From assembly GCA_963662465.1 (NCBI GenBank), contig OY759599.1, forward strand, positions 5,312,001 through 5,376,000: a stretch of 64,000 nucleotides of DNA, given 5' to 3'. The notes under the pieces are model-generated. The model was not told where the DNA came from. It did not search any database and saw only the letters and a program-made list of their open reading frames with translations. The DNA comes from Desulfatiglandales bacterium. GTDB taxonomy: Bacteria; Desulfobacterota; DSM-4660; Desulfatiglandales; Desulfatiglandaceae. A program made the translations under genes and the position numbers. This document shows, piece after piece, positions 45,614-56,056 of this stretch (positions within the stretch are counted from its first letter, which is position 1; every line of letters starts with the position of its first letter).

Positions 45614-48346
45614 CTTATCGTTCGCGTTTTAAAAATAAGTTCTGCAAATTTTGCCGAGGAGGCAGGCAGCACTTACTTGGCGGAACAACATCTCCACGAT
45701 AAAATACGATATCAGAGGCATTGGTAGTACATCCCCGGTAAGGATACAGGCCCATAAGGGGAACAGGAACGAGCGCCTTGATAGATTGATTCGAAATTGT
45801 CGTAATTCATAGCTATTATTATTTTTTAATGGATTCAAAAACAATACGATAACATGCTGGAATAACGATGGACATTCACAGCTGTTTGTATTATATTAGT
45901 TTCCCAACATTACAACCACTTGAAATAACAGGGGAACTATATGAACCGACATGTGACGCATGTGTTCATTTTCGCATCAGTGTGTTTTTTGGTTTGGTTT
46001 TGCAGTTTTTCAAAGGTGCAGGCATCACCTGTTTCAGCAGGTACTGGAAATAATATAAATGCCGGTGCATCATCAAATCAACAAACTGGTCAATCTGAAA
46101 ATCAACCCAGACCTTTCGGTCAGAAGAATGATCGGCAGAAAATCCCAAAGCTTGAACGAAACAGGCTGGAAGAAGGTAAAAAATCAGCACCTGTAAGGAA
46201 ACGAAAAAAAAAGAAAAAATCAAATAAAACGAAAACTGCCAAGAAAAAGCGTGAGGGAACTCTATCATCGGATGATGATGCCTCTCACATTGCAAACAAA
46301 AGGAAAAAGGTCAAAAAGATTAACGTTACAGCAGAAAGAGTTGACGATATACCCCTATTGATAAAGGCCATGGTGAAAATGGGTATACAAGAAGCTATAG
46401 ACCAACACATCCCAGTTCAAAAGAACCAAAGAGATTTGAGCTGGGGATGGACGGCTGTTATATGGTTGGCATATATGTTATCGGAGGGAGACCATCGCAA
46501 AGTAGTCGTCCGGGAATATGTATCTGGAATGCGGCATACCTTAATCGAATTAACAGGATTGATAATCTCCGAAAATGATTTCACAGACGATCGTTTAGCG
46601 AATCTTGCCAGGTATTTAAGCGATAACGATATTTGGAGCAAAGTTGAAGAGAGAATAAGTGGCAATACGATTGAAGCATATGAGTTGCCGGAAGAAACTG
46701 TCAGGGTTGATGCTACGACTGTATCCGGCTACCACAAAACAGTTGAAGGTGGGATATTCCAATTTGGTGTTAGTAAAGACGACCCCAATAGACCGCAAAT
46801 AAAAATCATGACGGGTTCGCTGGATCCTCTTGGGATGCCGTTAGCCACGGATGTTGTTCCAGGGCAAATGGCCGATGACAAATTGTATGCACCTATCATA
46901 AGTCGCATTCACTCTATGCTCCAGAAACAAGGTGTCCTTTATGTGGGCGATTGCAAACTGAGTTCTCTTGAAAATCGTTTACACATTAAGGAAAAAGCGG
47001 AAGGACATTACTTATGTCCATTGCCTAATACTGGGAAAACCCCAGAATATATGGAGAAATGGATAGATGAAGGAAATTTGAAAGACAAAAAGAACGAGTT
47101 GATAAAGTACATCGTCCAAGACGATAAAGGTCAAGAGGAACTGAAAGCAAAAGGGTATGAGATAGAGCGTAACCAATCTGGTGAAATAAATGGAAAAGTG
47201 CTGAAATGGAAGGAACGCGTATTGATTGTAAAATCACCAGCGTATGAAAAGCAAAAAGAACTGGGATTGGAACGACGGCTTAAAAGCGCCGAGGAAAAAT
47301 TATATGCTCTGACACCACCAAGAGGCCCGGGGAAAAGGCAGATCAAAGAAAGAGAAAAATTAATAGAATCAGCAAAATCGATTTTGAAAAAACATAGGGT
47401 GAAAGATTTCCTTAAATATGAATATGTGCGGGAAGTAGAAAGTAAAACGAAATATATTGGTAAAGGTAGAGGGAGTGTCAAAAGAGAAAAAGGTTGAAGA
47501 AAGAATACGTTATCAAATAACAAAAGTGACACGGATTAAGGAAGCAATAGATGCGGAGAAGAAGAAGTATGGGTGGAAGGCCTATGTTACAGATGTATCA
47601 AAGGAGCGACTTGATTTTATTGATGTAGTTAGGTCTTATCGAAAACAATACCGGGTTGAACGAATATTTAACCGACTGAAAAGTAGGCTAAACATCGCTC
47701 CATTTTACGTAAAAAGGGAAGATCAAGTTAAAGGAATAACGCATCTTCTGATGATAGGAGTCAGGGTAATTACTCTGGTTGAATTTGTTGTTCGCCGCTC
47801 ATTAGCAAGAAGCGACGAAAAGCTTGTTGGATTGCACCTGGGAAATCCCAAGAAAGCTACGAACAATCCAACGTGTGAGAAGCTATTAAATGCTTTCAGC
47901 AAAATTACATTAACGATAATTGAAACAGGAGATAGTGTGATAAGACATCTAACCCCACTTTCTCAATTGCAACGTGAAATTCTAAAACACTTTGGACTTA
48001 GCACTTCTATATACGATAATTTAGAAGTTATGCAATAGTAAAATATTATCGTCATAGTCCTTACAGGTTGTCACAATTGAAATACAGATTTTACGACAAT
48101 TTATATGATTGTTGGAGATATGGAACGATGGTGTTTTACGCACGATCCATTCCATTTTCTGCCCTATTGTGTTGTTCCAATATTCGACGTGTGTTGTTTT
48201 TCAGGCTTTACTAACCCATGGATGCATGTTGCTCAAAAAGACTCCTGGTAGGCTTTCCGGAAATAACTTTTCCCCCTGCCAAGAGAGGTACCCTCTACCA
48301 GATTTCGAAATTAATCGAAGTGCAAATTTAAAACGCGAACGATAAG
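45614..48346 (+). mobile_element. IS1634-family element (2733 bp)
   Basis: 20-bp IR CTTATCGTTCGCGTTTTAAA; 6-bp TSD TTACCG (45608-13, 48347-52). Confidence 0.92.
45941..48038 (+). pseudogene. IS1634 family transposase, frameshifted near 47490
   Basis: ERVDDIPLL, RVDATT, FGVSKD, YVGDCK, YRKQYRVERIF split across two frames at an A5 run. Confidence 0.85.
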
Positions 48347-48639
48347 TTACCGTCATTCCATTCGAAACATACGCGCCACTGCTTATTGATAGTGATAGCA
48401 TATTGCCCTTTTCGATCCTCAGAAAGAGCATGAAATTTGTTTCTTGGGTTAAGCATCAACGCTTTTATGCTGGGGGCGGCATGAAGAACCATTAAGCGTT
48501 TTCTTGCCTGCCTTTCAAAGACTTGAAAGCGGCGTACCCGCTGATCATTAAATAGTTTTTCAGTATCTCGGCAGGCAAATGATCTAATCATGCCTAAAAT
48601 GTATTACGCAAGGCGTAATATGTCAATGTAATGCGTGGA

Positions 48640-48830
48640 ATCCCAGCAAAGAGGTTGCGAAGGGTGGAGACCATCAGCGTTTTGCCGAAGCGGCGGGGGA
48701 GGGCCATGAAGTAGTAGCGGCCCTCCTCCAGCATTCGGAGAATCCAGGGGGTCTTGTCCACATACAAAAACCCCTCACTGCGAATGATCTCAAAGGATTG
48801 CAGGTCAATGGGCAGTTTGAGAGGGGGCAT
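48640..48830 (-). pseudogene. N-terminal fragment of an AAA-ATPase-like protein, copy 1
   Basis: LPIDLQSFEIIR..YVDKT..PRRFGKTL; 48679-48851 repeats at 53922-54094. Confidence 0.8.
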
Positions 48831-49052
48831 TTGGCTGAATCTCCTTAAAAAACAAAGGGCTTTTTGAATTTCTTTCAGGATGCTTTAACGGGCCGTCAAT
48901 TGTCAAACAAAAAACAAATAATGGTGGGCGAAGTTAGAACCAAGACCCAAAATCCAATGACGCACCGCATTTCTCTTGCTCCTGAAACCCTTTTATTCTA
49001 TACTTTCCATAAAAAAAACGAAGTTTTAGCGCTTCGTCAATATTGTATCATA

Positions 49053-49179
49053 GTGCCTGAACGAAAACCTCTAAACATCGTTTTCCAATTTTCGTTAGAG
49101 ATTTACAACTAGATGATATGGTTTCGCTTTTTCACTTAAAACTTAAAACCGTGCCTGAACGGCTTTTTCGTTCAGGCAC
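49053..49179. mobile_element. MITE (127 bp)
   Basis: IR GTGCCTGAACGAAAA / TTTTCGTTCAGGCAC with flanking direct repeat TATCATA on both sides. Confidence 0.8.
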
Positions 49180-49201
49180 TATCATAGGATAGGAATTCAG
49201 C

Positions 49202-49567
49202 ATGGACGGGCTAGGTTTGACATCGGATACTGACGGCAAAGACAAGCCGGCGTCAGAGGGATTGCCGCACAATCTTCGAACTTTTTTCTGGGATGTGGAT
49301 ACTGGCAGACTCTCCATTACCGGGTCGGCCCATTTTATCATCGGCCGTTTGATGGAACATGGCGATGAAGACGCGGTGAGATTCCTCTTTAAAAGTTACA
49401 GCCGTGATGAACTGGTCCAGGTTTTGAGAAAGAACAGGACCATTTCAAGGCGTTCACATGTTTTCTGGCGCCTTTTCCTTGGAATCGAAGAAAAATCATG
49501 TACACTGAAACGATATCCAACGCCTTATGGCAACTGCTCAAACGCCTCGATGGATTCCCGGAGTTAA
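49202..49567 (+). CDS. DUF6922-like putative antitoxin
   Basis: FFWDVD...FIIGRLMEHGD; upstream of a nucleotidyltransferase. Confidence 0.7.
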   Translation: MDGLGLTSDTDGKDKPASEGLPHNLRTFFWDVDTGRLSITGSAHFIIGRLMEHGDEDAVRFLFKSYSRDELVQVLRKNRTISRRSHVFWRLFLGIEEKSCTLKRYPTPYGNCSNASMDSRS

Positions 49568-50142
49568 AAATCGCGTATCTGGGGGGTGGAACAGCTCTGG
49601 CGCTTCAATTGGGACATCGCCGTTCTGATGATCTCGACTTTTTCCTTCCGGAAGACTTTAATATACAGACTCTGCTGCGAGAGTTCGGAAAACAGGACAT
49701 GACAATCACGGTTCTCGCTCAGACATCACGCCACACGGAACTTATCGTTCAGTCCTTAAAAGTCGATCTCATCGAAGAGCAGATCCCCCTGACGCGCCCG
49801 GCTCGATTGATCCATCGGGAAATCAGGAATCTGAATATGGCGGATGCCGTGGATATTGGGCGTATGAAACTTCTGACCATCGGGAGCAGGGGCGGCAGGA
49901 AGGATTTTGTCGACCTTTTCTGTCTTACGAGAGACATAATTTCTCTAAAGTCTCTGATCGCCTTGTCCATTGAAGAAAACCGGGGCATCAGGTACAGCAA
50001 ACTATTGTTCTTAAAGGGCCTCGTGGATTTTGAAACGGCCGACCTGGAACCGGATCCTGTCATGATCTGGGAAATAGACTGGGATACTGTGAAAAAAACC
50101 CTGATCGCTGAGGTAAAACAAATCGCCGGTGAGATTTGTTAA
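49498..50142 (+). CDS. AbiEii/AbiGii-type nucleotidyltransferase toxin
   Basis: YLGGGTALALQLGHRRSDDLDFF, K...SRGGRKDFVDL. Confidence 0.88.
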   Translation: MYTETISNALWQLLKRLDGFPELKIAYLGGGTALALQLGHRRSDDLDFFLPEDFNIQTLLREFGKQDMTITVLAQTSRHTELIVQSLKVDLIEEQIPLTRPARLIHREIRNLNMADAVDIGRMKLLTIGSRGGRKDFVDLFCLTRDIISLKSLIALSIEENRGIRYSKLLFLKGLVDFETADLEPDPVMIWEIDWDTVKKTLIAEVKQIAGEIC

Positions 50143-50213
50143 TCCACTTTGATCCAAAATATTGCATGAGCGCGTTTTCTGAGAAATGCAAAGGCGTCTT
50201 TGCGGGACATTTC

Positions 50214-50280
50214 AGATAGCCGGTTTGAAACAGCAGGGCCCCCACGCCCAAACGCTCTAGGTCGTACACACTGAAAAGGG
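50214..50280 (-). pseudogene. internal fragment of an AAA-ATPase-like protein
   Basis: FSVYDLERLGVGALLFQTGYL. Confidence 0.6.
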
Positions 50281-50298
50281 ATTGTAAACCTGTTATAT

Positions 50299-50757
50299 TT
50301 AGAAAGACAACATCCTATCCCCACCGATCACACCCTCCACCGTCTCCGGGCGGTTTTTTTGTTTGGTGGATCGTTCTTCTAAATATTGTTCCGCAGCATC
50401 TACCAACAACTGAGATCTTTTCATTCCGGCGCTTGTCCTGTATTCATCTACTCGAACCAACAGTTTTTCCGGGAAAATCACATTAAATCGTTTGGTCTTT
50501 GTATATTTCTTTTTGATAGATTCATTCACCGGAATCGGTATGATTTCAGATTCCGGATTTTCGCTCTGCAACTTTTCACGAGACGATTTTTGATGTACCA
50601 CTGTCTCCTGTTCAGATAAACATGCAGCCAAAGCATCAACCCCCATTTTATAGGCTTCATCCCAGGTTTTACCGAAGGTCTCACAGATTTCCACATCTGG
50701 AATTGAGACTAAGACATTATCATCTTCTTTTGTGAAGACAGCGTAAAAAAACTCCAT
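50299..50757 (-). CDS. hicB: HicB family antitoxin with RHH domain
   Basis: VSIPDVEICETFGKTWDEAYKMGVDAL, KRFNVIFPEKLL. Confidence 0.88.
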   Translation of the reverse strand: MEFFYAVFTKEDDNVLVSIPDVEICETFGKTWDEAYKMGVDALAACLSEQETVVHQKSSREKLQSENPESEIIPIPVNESIKKKYTKTKRFNVIFPEKLLVRVDEYRTSAGMKRSQLLVDAAEQYLEERSTKQKNRPETVEGVIGGDRMLSF

Positions 50758-50950
50758 TTTTGCCTCCTTTTTTATTCTTTAATTCCGGCTCGTTTCAAAA
50801 TATTGTTTACCGTTATATAATAAAAAACCAACAGGTTACACTCCCCATTACAGCATAAATAAATATTTTTCAATAGCTATCGAAAAAAGAAACCTCCTGT
50901 TAAGATGAAGTCGCTTTCCAAACAACTTTAACTTAAAAAGGAGGTTTCAA

Positions 50951-52237
50951 ATGGACGGTGTAGATACTACCAGGCTGGAGCGTTTTCGTCAATTGAGGAA
51001 GGAAATCCGTGGATCCAAGGAACATTTGATTGTAGGCATTGACGTGGCCAAGGATAATCATCATGCTTTTTTGGGGACAGCCAGGGGAAAAACACTTCTG
51101 AAGCGGTTGGTTTTTAACAACAATTTTCAGGGGTATGAGAAATTGTTCACATACGTTGATGCTACCAAAGTTAAGAATAACCTGAATAAAGTGGTCTTTG
51201 GTCTTGAACCGACCGCCAATTACCACAAACCTCTGGGCGAACATTTGATCAAATGCGGTTTTGATGTGGTGCTTGTGGCAGGCACGGCCGTGAAGAAAAA
51301 CCGTGAATTACTGGATGGGCGCTGGGATAAGCATGATACGAAGGATGCGGCCAATGTAGCGGATTTGGTTTCCCAAGGCAAATGTCTGTTTTACGAATAT
51401 CCGATCATGCCGATTCGTGAACTGCGAAATCTCCTGTCTTTTAAACGTCGGCTGAAAAAACAGGAACATGGGGCCAGAGTACGGATTCGGAATCATTTGC
51501 TTGCTCAGTATTTTCCTGAATTGGATCCTTATTTTTCCCGGATATCAGGCTGTAGCCTTAGCGTTGTGAAATGGTGTCTGGAACCTTCTTTGATTGCAGG
51601 ACTGGAGTACGAAGAGTTCCTTAGGTTGGTCGCACCCGGTAAACGTACGGTAAGACAACTGGAGTACGTGAAGCAGATTTGGGAAAAGGCATTTGAATCC
51701 ATCGGATGTAATGCCGGGGGAACCGTTCAGTTTGAGGCAAAAATGATGGTGGAAGAACTTGAACATGTTCGGGAATCAATTTTGGAAGTCGAAGAAAAGA
51801 TTGAAGAAATTTGCTTGGCTTTTTCTGAATACAAACATCTTCTCACCATACCTGGTTTTGGAAAAGATATTTCATCGAAGGTTTTGGGCGCTATCGGCAA
51901 CCCATTTCGGTTTGATAATGCAAAACAGGTGGTAAAACTGTCAGGGTGGGACCTGAATGCAAACCGTAGCGGAAAAAGTTCAGCGGGTGCTACGGCCGTA
52001 ATTTCTAAAAAAGGCAAAGCCGACCTGCGCTATGCGTTGTACCAGGCGGCCCTGGTTGCTTCATCTAGAAACCAACACTTTGTTGCATACTTTACGGAAA
52101 AACTCCGGGGAAGATCCCGCGAACGGGGCATCAAGACAAAAATGAGAGTGAAACTGGCGGCTAAACTTCTGGTAATCGCGTGGACCTTAATGAAAAAGCA
52201 GGAACCGTTCAATCCTGAATATTTGAAAGTAACATGA
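50951..52237 (+). CDS. IS110 family transposase (bridge recombinase)
   Basis: DEDD: GIDVAK, LEPTANYH, KHDTKDA; TIPGFG; RSGK serine motif; AGGAGG RBS; intact. Confidence 0.95.
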   Translation: MDGVDTTRLERFRQLRKEIRGSKEHLIVGIDVAKDNHHAFLGTARGKTLLKRLVFNNNFQGYEKLFTYVDATKVKNNLNKVVFGLEPTANYHKPLGEHLIKCGFDVVLVAGTAVKKNRELLDGRWDKHDTKDAANVADLVSQGKCLFYEYPIMPIRELRNLLSFKRRLKKQEHGARVRIRNHLLAQYFPELDPYFSRISGCSLSVVKWCLEPSLIAGLEYEEFLRLVAPGKRTVRQLEYVKQIWEKAFESIGCNAGGTVQFEAKMMVEELEHVRESILEVEEKIEEICLAFSEYKHLLTIPGFGKDISSKVLGAIGNPFRFDNAKQVVKLSGWDLNANRSGKSSAGATAVISKKGKADLRYALYQAALVASSRNQHFVAYFTEKLRGRSRERGIKTKMRVKLAAKLLVIAWTLMKKQEPFNPEYLKVT

Positions 52238-52380
52238 TAGAAGCCAAATCAGCCAAGAACCTCCGGTAAAGCCGGGGGTTTACTCAGAATAATGTCCACA
52301 CTATCAGGAAGTGGGGGCATGGAGACGGCAGTCAAACGACATCATTGCACAATGAGCAACATAAGACAGCCGGAGTTGAA

Positions 52381-53316
52381 ATGGATGAACTTGAACGATT
52401 TAAAAAAGAAATTAGCCTGATGGAATATGCACCGGCCCACGATTACACTGAGCTTGACCGTAGCCAGTCCAGCAAGACATGTGTAGTACTCAGGCGCGAG
52501 GCTGATGACGGCAAAATCGCAGTGAGCCGGGGCTATGATGGGCATTGGGTTTACTATGATTTCAGGCGTGGCAAAGGTGGTTCAATCCTTGACTTTGTAA
52601 TGCAGCATACCGGCTGCAATCTTGGCCAAACAAGAAAAGAGCTGAGAAAAGCGTTATGCAGCAACGTTAATTCTTTTTCCCATACTGCCCCTTTACCTAA
52701 TCCTCGATCAGCCACCAAGAACCGGCAAAAAGTGGCGTGGGAATATGCTGACACCACGCCCATTACAAGGCATCATGATTACTTGGAAAGCCGGGGGATT
52801 GGCCTTGAAGGCATTTTGGCTGGTCGGTTTGCCGGCGCCGTAAGAGTTGATCGGTATCGGAATGTTTGTTTTCCGTATTTTGATTTTAAGGGGATAGCGG
52901 GTATTGAAAGGCGGAATCATAATTTCAAATGTTACACGAAAGGAGGCAGTAAAGGGTTGTGGAGGAGTACGCTGATAGAGGGTGACTCAAAGGCCGTGAT
53001 TTGTGAAGCTCCAATTGACGCACTTTCCCATAGCAAACTGCGCCATGATAGCAACGACCGAACCAGGTATTTTGCAATCGGCGGCCAGATTAGCTATTTT
53101 CAATGGGAGTTGATTGATGGTCTGATAAAGAAATACAGTTCCGAAAAAATGGATATTTTTCTTGCATTTGACAACGACCCAGCCGGAAGAAAATATATCC
53201 GACAATTCCAGGAGCGTTATTCAGGGGTGTCATTTACGTTAGATTTGCCGCCCCAGGAAGGTCAGGACTGGAATGATGTTCTTCAGAGCAAACAACCAAT
53301 CGAGGGAAAATCTTGA
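52381..53316 (+). CDS. DUF3991/TOPRIM domain protein (primase-like)
   Basis: MDELERFKKEISL, GGSILDFV, YLESRGI; TOPRIM ICEAPIDALS and AFDNDPAG. Confidence 0.8.
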   Translation: MDELERFKKEISLMEYAPAHDYTELDRSQSSKTCVVLRREADDGKIAVSRGYDGHWVYYDFRRGKGGSILDFVMQHTGCNLGQTRKELRKALCSNVNSFSHTAPLPNPRSATKNRQKVAWEYADTTPITRHHDYLESRGIGLEGILAGRFAGAVRVDRYRNVCFPYFDFKGIAGIERRNHNFKCYTKGGSKGLWRSTLIEGDSKAVICEAPIDALSHSKLRHDSNDRTRYFAIGGQISYFQWELIDGLIKKYSSEKMDIFLAFDNDPAGRKYIRQFQERYSGVSFTLDLPPQEGQDWNDVLQSKQPIEGKS

Positions 53317-53372
53317 TTATTTTCTGAAGGGAAATGCAGTTGTTGTTTTACATATAAAAGCATGCAAGTTTA

Positions 53373-53532
53373 TCAGTGAGAGAGCTCGATGACTAACGTT
53401 GGGACCATTTTGGATCTCGTAGGGGACAATACTGGGCCTCTCACTGAACTTTACAACCTGGATAAGGGATGATAGGTGGCCGCCCAGCAGGGCGAGCATG
53501 CCGGATAAACGTAACGATAAGGTGTAGAGTTC
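53373..53532 (+). ncRNA. predicted bridge/seek RNA of the IS110 element
   Basis: Two consecutive stem-loops with large internal loops; loop 1 holds TGACTAACGT and AGGGGAC matching the target flanks; loop 2 holds GGATG and TAAC matching the circle junction. Confidence 0.72.
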
Positions 53533-53921
53533 ATAAAAGGTGAGAAACTCACTGAAAACTGCAAAAAGTCCGCAACGGACTTAATGCTGAATTGTGCAAA
53601 AAATTTTGGACATAGCGTAACTACCTGTTATTACAGGGTTTGCAGTTTTTTGAAGTTTTTTCTTGACAGGAGCATTATAGGATGTCCCCTTTGGGATGTC
53701 GGCAGCTTGCCTGGGGATTGGTATTGTTTGTCCGTTTTTTCCCCAAATTTCGTGACGGCCTTCTCGGAGGAAGTTCCACCCGGATGCGCTCAAGAGTTTG
53801 AGTAGTTCCCGCTTTGTCATTTCCGTCCCCCCGCAGTTGAAGTTGGAAGTATTGTAGTGTGTAATTGGGTATCAATCAAACGAAAAATACACAATTACAC
53901 ATTTTGCAAGACAATTTCCCA

Positions 53922-54073
53922 GTTTTGCCGAAGCGGCGGGGATGGGCCATGAAGTAGTAGCGGCCCTCCTCCAGCATTCGGAGAATCCAGGGGGTCTTGT
54001 CCACATACAAAAACCCCTCACGGCGAATGATCTCAAAGGATTACAGGTCAATGGGCAGTTTGAGAGGGGGCAT
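53922..54073 (-). pseudogene. N-terminal fragment of an AAA-ATPase-like protein, copy 2
   Basis: Near-identical to 48679-48830. Confidence 0.8.
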
Positions 54074-54113
54074 TTGGCTGAATCTCCTTAAAAATACTTC
54101 CCGGATACCCCAC

Positions 54114-56056
54114 GAGGGGTTTGCGCTGTGCTTAAGTCTCTGGTATCCTGGAGGGATTTGGCAGTGTCAAAAAAACATTACCCCAAAAAAAAGATGGGTG
54201 GGCATCCTGAAATCAAGCACTTAGCTAGATCGAGTCGGAATTTTCCATTTTTTCACCCCAAGCGAAAGAACTTGTCGGAATACCTTGATTTTAATACAAA
54301 ATATTGTACAATGCCTTCATCAGATAACAGGATAGAGTGTTTCTTTAAATATTTGATGGAGGCCGAAACTTGGCAGCAGTGAGTCCGTTTCTTTTTTCGT
54401 GGAATGATGTCGAAGCACGCTCGGATTTGGACCGTTTCTATCTGGTGCGCGATAATCTGCCTGATGAGAATATTGTAGCGGCACTTGAAAAGCGTCGCGG
54501 CAATGGGAGAGATGATTTTCCGATACGCGCAATGTGGAACGCGCTTATTGCGGGAGTCGTGTTCCAGCATGCATCCATTGAATCTTTGATTCGCGAATTG
54601 TCCAGGAATCCGGCGTTATTAGAGGCATGCGGATTTGATATTCTGCCGAGGCAAAAAAAACCGGTAGCTGAACTGAGACGCAATGAGGAAACGGGCCGAA
54701 TGGAAATCATACGGTCTGAGAGCGGAAATGCATATTTTTTGGTTCCAGGTAGTTGGAATTTCTCAAGATTTTTAAGGAGCGTCATAGAACTGGAAGAATA
54801 TGGTAATATGGTCAGCGGCATGGTGCGTGGGCTTCGAGAATCCTTAATGACAGAACTCCCTGATTTTGGTTGTCATTTAGGGTATGACGGCAAGGCTATC
54901 AACAGTTATAGTACGGGACAAGAAAGCCGGAAAACCGGTGAAACCTCCGATACGGATGCAGATTGGGGCAAGCATGAAACGAAAGGGACAGACAGTAAAA
55001 CCGGAAAGCAGTGGACAAAAGTAAAAAGCTGGTTTGGATATGGCCTTCATTTGATCGCTGATACCCTATATGAAATTCCGGTGGCAGTTCATGTAACACC
55101 TGCCTCGCATTCGGAACACAAGGAACTGCGAAGCATGATCAAAGAAATTTTTGAGGAAACACCGCAGCTTGGCGAGCGCTGTGATGATTTTGTGGCGGAC
55201 CGTGGTTTGGATTCCGGCAAAACTAAGGCTCAGCTGTTGGATGAATATGGGATTCGGCCCGGCATTGATACCCGTGAACTGTGGAGAGATGAAAAGAATG
55301 AGCCGGGATACGATCCTGCAAAACCGATCACACGACCTCTTTATCCTGACCGGGCAGATACCATTGTGTATACTGAGAAAGGGACAGTCCATTGTATTTG
55401 TCCGGCTACTGGAGAACAGCGGGACATGGCTTTTTGTGGCTTTGAAAAAAATCGCAATACCCTGAAATATCGTTGTCCCGCAGCTGCAAACGGCTTTTCC
55501 TGTGAAGGATGTGGAGAGTGTTCATCTGCGGGGCAAGTTAATCCCGGAGATTATGGGCGAATTGTCAGAATAAATATCACTGAGGAAGATCGGCGAATCT
55601 TCACACCCATTCCCTATGGTACGCAGGGTTGGGACCGAGCGTATAATCGGCGTTCTTCTTTGGAGAGAATCAACAGTCGGATCGATAATGATTTTGGTTT
55701 TGAGAAACATTACATACGCGGCCAAGCCAAAATGCAAACAAGAGTTTGCTTGGCCACCGCCGTAATGATGGCAATGGCCCTTGGTCATGTAAGGGCTGGC
55801 CGTATTGAGCAAATGCGCTCCCTTGTACGGCCAATAGCCAGAGCCGCCTAATCCAATTTATTTAAAATAGTTATAAATAAATGATTTAATTTAAATTTAA
55901 AGGGATTAGCATGTCCAATTATCGGGTTTTTGGGGTATGTCTTTGGAAACCATAATATTCTGCTGCCATGTCGCCCTCTCAGACCTCGCGCCCGCGTTTT
56001 TTTGGGGCCCAGAACACCCCCGGTACGGCACAAAAACGGTACAGCGCAAACCTCTC
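54114..56056 (+). mobile_element. IS1182/IS5-like element (1943 bp)
   Basis: 16-bp IR GAG(G/A)GGTTTGCGCTGT; 5-bp TSD CCCAC (54109-13, 56057-61). Confidence 0.85.
54370..55851 (+). CDS. DDE transposase (IS1182/IS5-like)
   Basis: GRDDFPIRAMW N-domain, YDGK, FGYGLH, ADRGLD, YNRRSSLERINS. Confidence 0.88.
   Translation: MAAVSPFLFSWNDVEARSDLDRFYLVRDNLPDENIVAALEKRRGNGRDDFPIRAMWNALIAGVVFQHASIESLIRELSRNPALLEACGFDILPRQKKPVAELRRNEETGRMEIIRSESGNAYFLVPGSWNFSRFLRSVIELEEYGNMVSGMVRGLRESLMTELPDFGCHLGYDGKAINSYSTGQESRKTGETSDTDADWGKHETKGTDSKTGKQWTKVKSWFGYGLHLIADTLYEIPVAVHVTPASHSEHKELRSMIKEIFEETPQLGERCDDFVADRGLDSGKTKAQLLDEYGIRPGIDTRELWRDEKNEPGYDPAKPITRPLYPDRADTIVYTEKGTVHCICPATGEQRDMAFCGFEKNRNTLKYRCPAAANGFSCEGCGECSSAGQVNPGDYGRIVRINITEEDRRIFTPIPYGTQGWDRAYNRRSSLERINSRIDNDFGFEKHYIRGQAKMQTRVCLATAVMMAMALGHVRAGRIEQMRSLVRPIARAA

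Follow-up and report, generated by a model that had tools for sequence, protein, structure and literature searches.

Within the 64,000-nucleotide stretch of a Desulfatiglandales genome analysed here (hereafter the window), an insertion sequence splits a hicA toxin gene, and a hairpin in the right non-coding end of this insertion sequence carries loop bases complementary to the site in which it sits. This raises two questions: is the hairpin the target-reading part of a guide RNA, and was hicA the site for which it was programmed? The account that we favour, and to which we assign a probability of roughly 85%, is that the hairpin belongs to a bridge RNA, that the guides of the clade are set to the terminal inverted repeats (TIRs) of TIRtrons, and that hicA was entered off-target.

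A scarless IS110-family insertion in hicA

The IS110-family element occupies positions 50812-53685. To its right lies the 5' part of hicA (53686..53820, minus strand; an open reading frame of 45 codons that matches positions 2-48 of the 58-position Pfam HicA_toxin profile at E 1e-6), which doubles as the right target flank. To its left lies the 3' remnant of 12 codons and a stop (50772..50811, minus strand), whose translation is in frame with the 5' part across a GT core. The hicB antitoxin gene, downstream of the split gene, is intact (50299..50757, minus strand; Pfam HicB_lk_antitox, E 1.8e-13). In one of four public runs (run X1), a 1,949-nucleotide contig joins 50811 directly to 53684 with no differing letters, and two letters fit either side of the joint. 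An empty hicA allele therefore exists, and the insertion is scarless: together with the junction comparison, which places the core at 50812..50813 (plus strand) on the left, the empty allele reveals a two-nucleotide GT core and no longer target duplication. Furthermore, because the flanks of the empty allele are identical to those in the window, the insertion appears to be recent. Run X1, in which two variants of the element are present, could represent the source sample itself or else a sister strain, and is not independent of the genome. The surroundings (48328-50757 and 53872-55851) are a cluster of toxin-antitoxin genes and mobile genes (HigB-like, DUF6922/AbiEii, hicAB and DDE transposases), with AAA-ATPase fragments on both sides.

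The element encodes a 428-amino-acid recombinase (50951..52237, plus strand) with Pfam domains PF01548 and PF02371, which scores 171.6 bits against NCBIfam NF033542 (cut-off 140) and retains the motif residues of a DEDD RuvC-like domain and of a Tnp domain with an SG motif (D31, E86, D129, D132 and S340). Sequence searches relate it to the IS621 and ISCro4 chains. Its closest relatives are in Desulfobacterota genomes, its best plasmid matches are only 27-33% identical, and relatives were absent from the viral contigs searched. Between this gene and the hairpin lies a cargo gene for a primase-like protein of 323 amino acids with DUF3991 and Toprim_2 domains (52345..53316, plus strand; Pfam).

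The short left non-coding end (50814..50950, plus strand) starts with the right donor arm and a -10-like TATA, and the right junction (53677..53685, plus strand) carries the left donor arm and the GT core, as delimited by junction and donor comparisons. A -35 hexamer, TTGACA (53663..53668, plus strand), would lie 17 nucleotides from this TATA if the ends were joined in a circle, a layout that points to a circle-junction promoter. The hexamer is exact in 109 of 116 right ends and the spacing to the TATA is 17 nucleotides in 99 of them, these ends having been called with a motif that allows hexamer variants. A promoter scan found no local promoter for the predicted RNA upstream of 53373, and the RNA would presumably be transcribed from the circle junction or by read-through. 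None of the five joints listed in the four runs connects a right end to a left end, which does not by itself show that the circle is absent. In the metatranscriptome, contigs of three runs span the element, and the bin 53404-53507 is the deepest in two; yet it is also high in the best non-RNA run, and since contigs reveal neither ends, level nor strand, this depth does not count as evidence for the RNA. A nine-nucleotide match to the left donor arm and core also lies within the 3' end of hicB (50310-50318, minus strand; inverted repeat I24), and may be due to chance.

The hairpin lies in a conserved three-way junction

The initial annotation described a perfect 10-bp stem at 53373..53447, enclosing an internal loop and an inner hairpin whose strands read the insertion site. 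Both complementarities hold: the right loop strand (53421-27) is the exact reverse complement of the core plus five nucleotides of right flank (53684-90), and the left loop strand (53390-99) matches the left flank plus core (50804-13) at 7 of 10 positions. The arms of the stem (53373-82/53438-47) are indeed perfect reverse complements, but its outer five pairs are not the conserved helix. In homologs these pairs are poorly kept (for example, paired in 24/69 and 45/69 sequences), and the same bases pair instead with distal positions 53539-44 (96.5% of cells) and 53548-55 (79.0%), with compensatory changes.

The fold that emerges from pair counts and single-sequence folding is a three-way junction, the predicted bridge RNA, at about 53373..53555 (plus strand). 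It is closed by the helix 53373-80/53548-55 and carries two arms: a target-binding arm with a stem, an internal loop and an inner hairpin (53381..53439, plus strand; delimited by folding and by pair counts in homologs), and a donor-binding arm (53440..53544, plus strand). This fold is conserved in homologs, with 90.8% of cells paired and two-sided changes in 31 of 43 pairs, as counted in 69 of 94 non-redundant sequences against a structure partly derived from the same sequences. None of 500 shuffles scored as high, and slid controls were 28-43% paired. The 75-mer alone folds at -28.1 kcal/mol (z = -3.81, 0/200 shuffles as good) and the whole right end of 370 nucleotides at z = -5.20 (0/100 shuffles as good). 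The fold of the window's own 193 nucleotides chose the same distal pairs, but misfolded the target loop. Across the window and its homologs, the target loop is conserved in the 136 of 155 loci in which the guide was parsed, with guide strands that vary within a fixed frame.

Could this structure instead be a terminator, or a chance fold behind the primase-like gene, with coincidental flank matches? The hairpin does start 57 nucleotides past the stop codon of that gene, and no RNA family accounts for it, the three Rfam matches all having E of about 1 or worse and none lying at 53373-53447. Terminator prediction, however, makes no call at the hairpin, and in homologs without the cargo the hairpin directly follows the recombinase gene. 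Moreover, its loop bases covary with insertion sites, as described below, so that this explanation is already refuted unless the junction calls are wrong, and we regard it as scarcely credible. We are almost certain that what we have here is the target-binding loop of a bridge RNA, and the architecture with left and right target guides that had been proposed for it is borne out by both the guide/flank covariation and the conserved structure.

Target guides covary with the flanks of each insertion

Homologs were drawn from a set of 74 loci and from the best 80 of 406 further loci, at 48-98% protein identity, making 155 loci with the window, in which we parsed 137 right ends, 129 left junctions, 116 right junctions and 136 guides. 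Junctions were called by the element's own end motifs, with three left junctions and one guide set by hand. As a consequence, the conservation of the core and ends arises partly by construction, while the comparison of guides with flanks is unaffected.

The left target guide (53391..53399, plus strand; seven nucleotides plus core) was identified by its covariation with left flanks. Across 104 distinct guide/flank pairs (114 before duplicate removal), the seven-nucleotide guide matched its own flank at 5.40 of 7 positions on average, compared with 3.64±0.11 when flanks were permuted (0/20000 permutations as high). The signal persisted within 90%-identity clusters (5.60 versus 4.60±0.27; 35 elements, 0/5000), and when one element was taken per 75% cluster (5.44 versus 3.46; 27 elements), and is therefore not explained by relatedness. 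A guide disagrees with its flank at three or more bases (a match of 4/7 or less) in 18 of the 104.

On the right, 112 pairs were reduced to 110 distinct insertions. Flank positions 1-3 matched the guide at frequencies of 0.98, 0.98 and 0.95, for expected values of 0.86, 0.88 and 0.83, while positions 4-7 matched at 0.43, 0.36, 0.31 and 0.15, which is about chance (0.36, 0.35, 0.29 and 0.16 expected). Ten elements have a different right guide, and these match their own flank at 3/3 positions in six cases, 2/3 in two, 1/3 in one and 0/3 in one. The per-position matches therefore define a reading frame of 7 + 2 + 3 nucleotides, in which the effective right guide is 53423..53427 (plus strand; three nucleotides plus the core complement) and a reading of 53419-22 is unsupported. 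This frame is close to the geometry described for IS621 in the accessible part of PMC11208160. In a set of homologs (L037-L040, L043, L044, L059, L061, L064, L065, L071 and L085), both target guides are rewritten to non-TIR targets; their hosts are mostly Nitrospirota and Syntrophorhabdaceae-like.

The donor-binding loop adjoins the target loop and matches the joined ends by covariation. Its guides (left, about 53467-71; right, 53512-15) were located by covariation with element ends and by their helices. Among 116 elements, the left strand of the donor loop tracks the right end of its element in 3/3 C-variants, 3/4 A-variants and 8/8 T-variants, and 2 of 101 left donor guides of the common type disagree with the donor. 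The right strand is identical in 115 elements, and the single variant fits the left end of its own element. Both donor guides are short and mostly invariant, so these figures draw on informative changes in 16 of the 116 elements. Nine elements (L104, L106, L107, L111, L119 and relatives) have an extra T before the right-end core, eight of them with a matching change in the donor guide; this is natural reprogramming of the donor loop.

Most guides of the clade are probably set to the ends of TIRtrons

In the homologs, the similarity among many left flanks extends past the guide zone; right flanks, by comparison, diverge after CCCC, a motif that directly follows all three right junctions in the window's own genome. 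This 8.16-Mb genome contains a second near-complete right half of the element (copy 2; C1:2925968-2927466, 96%), together with one stub of each end and a gene fragment. When we scanned it for the target predicted from the window's guides, there were nine best sites, each with one mismatch, and seven of these belonged to one repeat family. The same seven sites are matched exactly by the left guide of copy 2, and all are unoccupied. The repeats are the TIRs of elements whose Y1 transposase has a DnaA-type helix-turn-helix, and also of short copies that lack a transposase. A Y1 gene, or part of one, is found next to five of the seven sites. One protein of this genome carries both Y1_Tnp and Bac_DnaA_C, the others being linked to it by tblastn, and a Y1 gene at C1:4146458-4147536 is bounded by inverted repeats whose first six positions fit GGGGWSAS and whose position 7 differs.

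These features identify the targeted elements as TIRtron/TIRYT-like. TIRtrons, or TIRYT, were described by Di Nocera et al. 2013 (PMC3733652) and correspond to TnpA-Y1 subclass 2.1 of Quentin et al. 2018 (10.1101/279083), as far as the accessible parts of both sources go. They share with the repeats found here the combination of Y1_Tnp and Bac_DnaA_C and inverted repeats starting GGGG-A/T-C, and differ at position 7, which is G in the targeted repeats and A in the published consensus GGGGWSAS. As an explanation of the shared left flanks, attC, dif and Tn402-type ends had first been considered, and were abandoned when the Y1 genes and the sister repeats came to light.

The same class of site recurs across the homologs. 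Seventeen left flanks contain a Y1 match, as do two right flanks; for 16 of the left ones, the nearest edge of the match is 35-186 nucleotides away from the junction. Ten of 52 long left flanks also carry a sister inverted repeat, for which shuffles gave 0.0. Elements with common guides have 87 distinct flanks, of which 60 are TIR or TIR-like (20 directly, and 40 of the remaining 67 by similarity, where 3.8 were expected), as against 0 of 10 in the group with other guides. TIR-likeness was scored outside the guide zone with a cut-off of 4 mismatches in 13 that was our own choice, several of the direct calls rest on short Y1 matches (E about 1e-5 to 1e-6), and 11 flanks are without a parsed guide. 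The presence of a Y1 gene taken alone gives a weak contrast (9/53 versus 0/10 long left flanks for common and other guides).

It is conceivable that this targeting is incidental, such that what the guides recognise is a short motif, A/C-rich plus GTCCC, and the insertions that survive lie in TIRs simply because they are harmless there and the repeats are abundant. A bias of survivors toward dispensable DNA is to be expected; the genome shows no excess of the 8-mer and 9-mer core motifs, and 27 of the 87 flanks, that of the window among them, are not classed as TIR-like. Against this, guides of different types go with different subtypes of TIR, and do so within clades as well, the Y1 matches are one-sided in their orientation, and a single TIR family supplies most of the best genomic sites for the window's guide. 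We therefore think an incidental association rather unlikely, and hold that the usual landing sites of the clade are very probably the GGGGAC-ended TIRs of Y1/TIRYT elements, with hicA as an off-target. A search for reports of IS110 targeting of TIRtron/TIRYT elements, or of REP-associated tyrosine transposase/TnpAREP elements, found none in the mostly open-access literature covered, which does not establish absence from print; the accessible parts of PMC3733652 and 10.1101/279083 make no link to IS110 targeting.

Two regions of the host contig may be of interest with respect to these repeats. At G000:C1:6995000-7045000 (loci L003 and L004), and on to about 7.1 Mb, small toxin-antitoxin-like and Y1 genes form a dense array, with almost all of them on the plus strand. 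Between them lie TIR-type sites of two kinds that share one orientation, and the array has an integron-like look. One 12-nucleotide site pattern has 14 of its 26 genomic copies on the plus strand in 6.9-7.1 Mb, and the array holds one left-end and two right-end stubs of the insertion sequence. Our literature search on such a TIR-punctuated array found nothing. The C-run motif found after the array sites also occurs in the left end of the window's element (50812-50853). It is precisely at this motif that the left-end stub at C1:7032564-7032606 breaks off, which suggests that the left-end motif recombined with an array site. Finally, the same site contexts occur near both contig ends (C1 ~37-57 kb and 8.09-8.12 Mb), which may reflect an untrimmed overlap or a duplication, so that repeat counts from these regions may be doubled.

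hicA is best read as an off-target site

Turning to the hicA insertion itself, the initial annotation had proposed a programmed target of about GACTAAC-GT-CCCCT, with hicA as a tolerated near-match. The layout of left and right guides stands, but since the effective right guide comprises the core and three bases, the target spans about 12 nucleotides rather than 14. Likewise, hicA does appear to have been tolerated rather than programmed, but the loop does not single it out: the left target flank (50805..50811, plus strand) matches the left guide at 4/7 positions, a score equalled or beaten by 249 genomic sites and to be compared with a homolog mean of 5.4/7. The scan of the window's own genome found no exact copy of the predicted target, and among family genomes it was present in 1 of 61, no more than the reversed control. 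The donor loop beside the target loop, and TIRtron terminal repeats as the probable target class of the clade, had escaped the initial annotation.

One could suppose that the loop is programmed for a 14-nucleotide target with a seven-nucleotide right arm, akin to the extended right guide of IS621, and that hicA was chosen mainly through this long arm. The seven-nucleotide right complement at hicA is real, extended right guides exist in IS621 and raise specificity (PMC11208160, accessible part), and one homolog group (L037) matches 7/7 on the right. But right-flank positions 4-7 match at about chance across the 110 insertions, so that a seven-nucleotide match overstates what is read, no exact 14-nucleotide target exists in the genome, and 372 sites equal the hicA total over both seven-nucleotide arms. 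A long right arm is therefore an unlikely explanation, although one that retains some weight.

Nor do we favour, and indeed consider quite unlikely, guidance in trans, whether by a different but related bridge RNA or by a previous form of the guide, with a better fit to hicA. The genome does contain defective copies and end stubs, run X1 contains two variants of the element, and the 18 of 104 homologs with discordant guides also fit such a scenario. However, the only other guide in the genome, that of copy 2, differs from the window's guide by one base and matches the hicA left flank worse (3/7), guides with T at both hicA-specific positions are atypical of the family, and the identical flanks of the empty allele speak for a recent insertion. 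Judging from column frequencies (T in 3/104), the window's left guide looks like a one-base drift from that of copy 2.

The best reading is thus that the hicA insertion was an off-target event carried by the core and right arm. According to Xie et al. (10.64898/2026.08.31.748434), one matching half-site is enough for IS621 in vitro, although sites with only a right target were left out of the in vivo count. With the toxin lost and the antitoxin kept, the insertion would be harmless, which may be why it survives. An intact hicA was not found in 10 genomes of the genus with the query used.

Relation to known IS110-family systems

On every feature tested the element is a member of the IS110 family, and it appears to work like IS621. 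With IS621 and ISCro4 (Durrant et al. 2024, PMC11208160; PDB 8WT6, 9T56), as described in the accessible material, it shares a DEDD plus Tnp-serine recombinase, a target loop followed by a donor loop, each with left and right guides, a seven-nucleotide left arm with a two-nucleotide core and a short right arm, the lack of long subterminal repeats and the layout of a predicted junction promoter. It differs in that the predicted RNA lies in the right end rather than the left, the core is GT, the recombinase has 428 rather than 328-341 amino acids, this RNA would fold as a three-way junction with a right arm of three nucleotides, the targets are TIRtron ends rather than REPs, and in one subclade a primase-like cargo lies between the recombinase and the RNA.

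The IS1111 group with its downstream seekRNA (Siddiquee et al. 2024, PMC11187229) resembles the element, from what is accessible of that source, in having a long non-coding region 3' of the gene, a top-strand guide before a bottom-strand guide, and the repeats of another mobile element as target; its examples include ISEc11, ISKpn4/ISPst6 (attC) and ISPa11 (REP). Subterminal inverted repeats are usually 11-13 bp there. A separate donor loop and another target class also distinguish the element here. Membership of IS1111 was rejected on the basis of these features, and not of a tree: no subterminal repeats are present, the longest exact inverted match between the terminal 30-nucleotide ends being 4-7 nucleotides in 103/103 elements, and 428 amino acids is outside the range of 330-350 (PMC11187229). 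In contrast, the IS110-group exceptions with a 3' non-coding region and transposases of 395-455 amino acids, listed in the accessible part of the same paper, fit in length, downstream region and lack of subterminal repeats. No nearest named insertion sequence was found in the searchable part of the PMC11208160 supplements.

A model for target choice

The following model combines these observations. The element would form a circle, whose joined ends would make both a promoter and the donor site. The recombinase would bind the predicted RNA of ~180 nucleotides, whose guide roles are shown by covariation; the donor loop would pair with the joined ends, and the target loop with seven nucleotides to the left and three to the right of a GT core. 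In most of the clade, the guides would be set to the GGGGAC-ended TIRs of Y1/TIRYT (TIRtron) elements, and the insertion sequence would enter these repeats in a single orientation, at a distance of four bases from the tip. In the window's copy, the left guide is one base off the guide that fits the TIRtron ends of its host, and the element probably went off-target into hicA through a full match to the right arm and core and a 4/7 match on the left.

With guides set to TIRtron terminal repeats, the insertion sequence would thus use the ends of another mobile element as landing pads. IS4321 and IS5075, also of the IS1111 group, reportedly target Tn21 TIRs. Targeting of REP, attC and Tn21 repeats by the IS110 family is already known from the accessible parts of PMC11208160 and PMC11187229, and the clade appears to add TIRtron ends to this list, and to mark the tips of an HUH element (the TIRtron) as conserved sites. 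The loop alone will not surprise a specialist, since its mechanism is the known bridge-RNA one. Nevertheless, the clade supplies about 100 natural pairs of guide and target, which define reading rules (7 + 2 + 3 nucleotides, GT core), the uncharacterised 428-amino-acid recombinase with its predicted right-end RNA is a candidate editing tool, and the hicA insertion with its empty allele provides a natural off-target event for the half-match model.

A primase-like cargo in one subclade

Of the 16 loci with 88% identity or more, 14 carry the cargo gene, which is absent from all 121 loci below this level. Its dN/dS relative to the window was 0.20-0.36 in 15 comparisons, which are not independent, and that of the recombinase 0.08-0.15. 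Five of the 15 matched cargo stretches contain a stop codon, as does copy 2. The best plasmid relatives of the protein, from small plasmids, are 35-39% identical over the full length, and among 300 sampled genomes elsewhere in the phylum the gene was found in none at E<=1e-25. We read it as a plasmid-type primase-like gene that was captured between the recombinase and the bridge RNA, and is under purifying selection, though broken in some copies. IS110 excision is reported, in the accessible part of the literature on the excision model, to release a single-stranded circle, and our guess is that the cargo might help to convert it; the gene in any case offers a testable link to single-stranded excision. 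It is tempting, but probably going too far, to picture the clade as a dedicated parasite of TIRtron ends that retunes its left guide for each TIR subtype and reshuffles the TIR-punctuated toxin-antitoxin arrays of its hosts, with the captured plasmid primase of one subclade priming second-strand synthesis on the excised circle.

Just past the recombinase stop, there is a 57-nucleotide stretch with a GC-rich hairpin (52241-52297), in place of which the run X1 variant has 13 other letters. The stretch is also absent from several homologs, and may be a separate miniature insertion.
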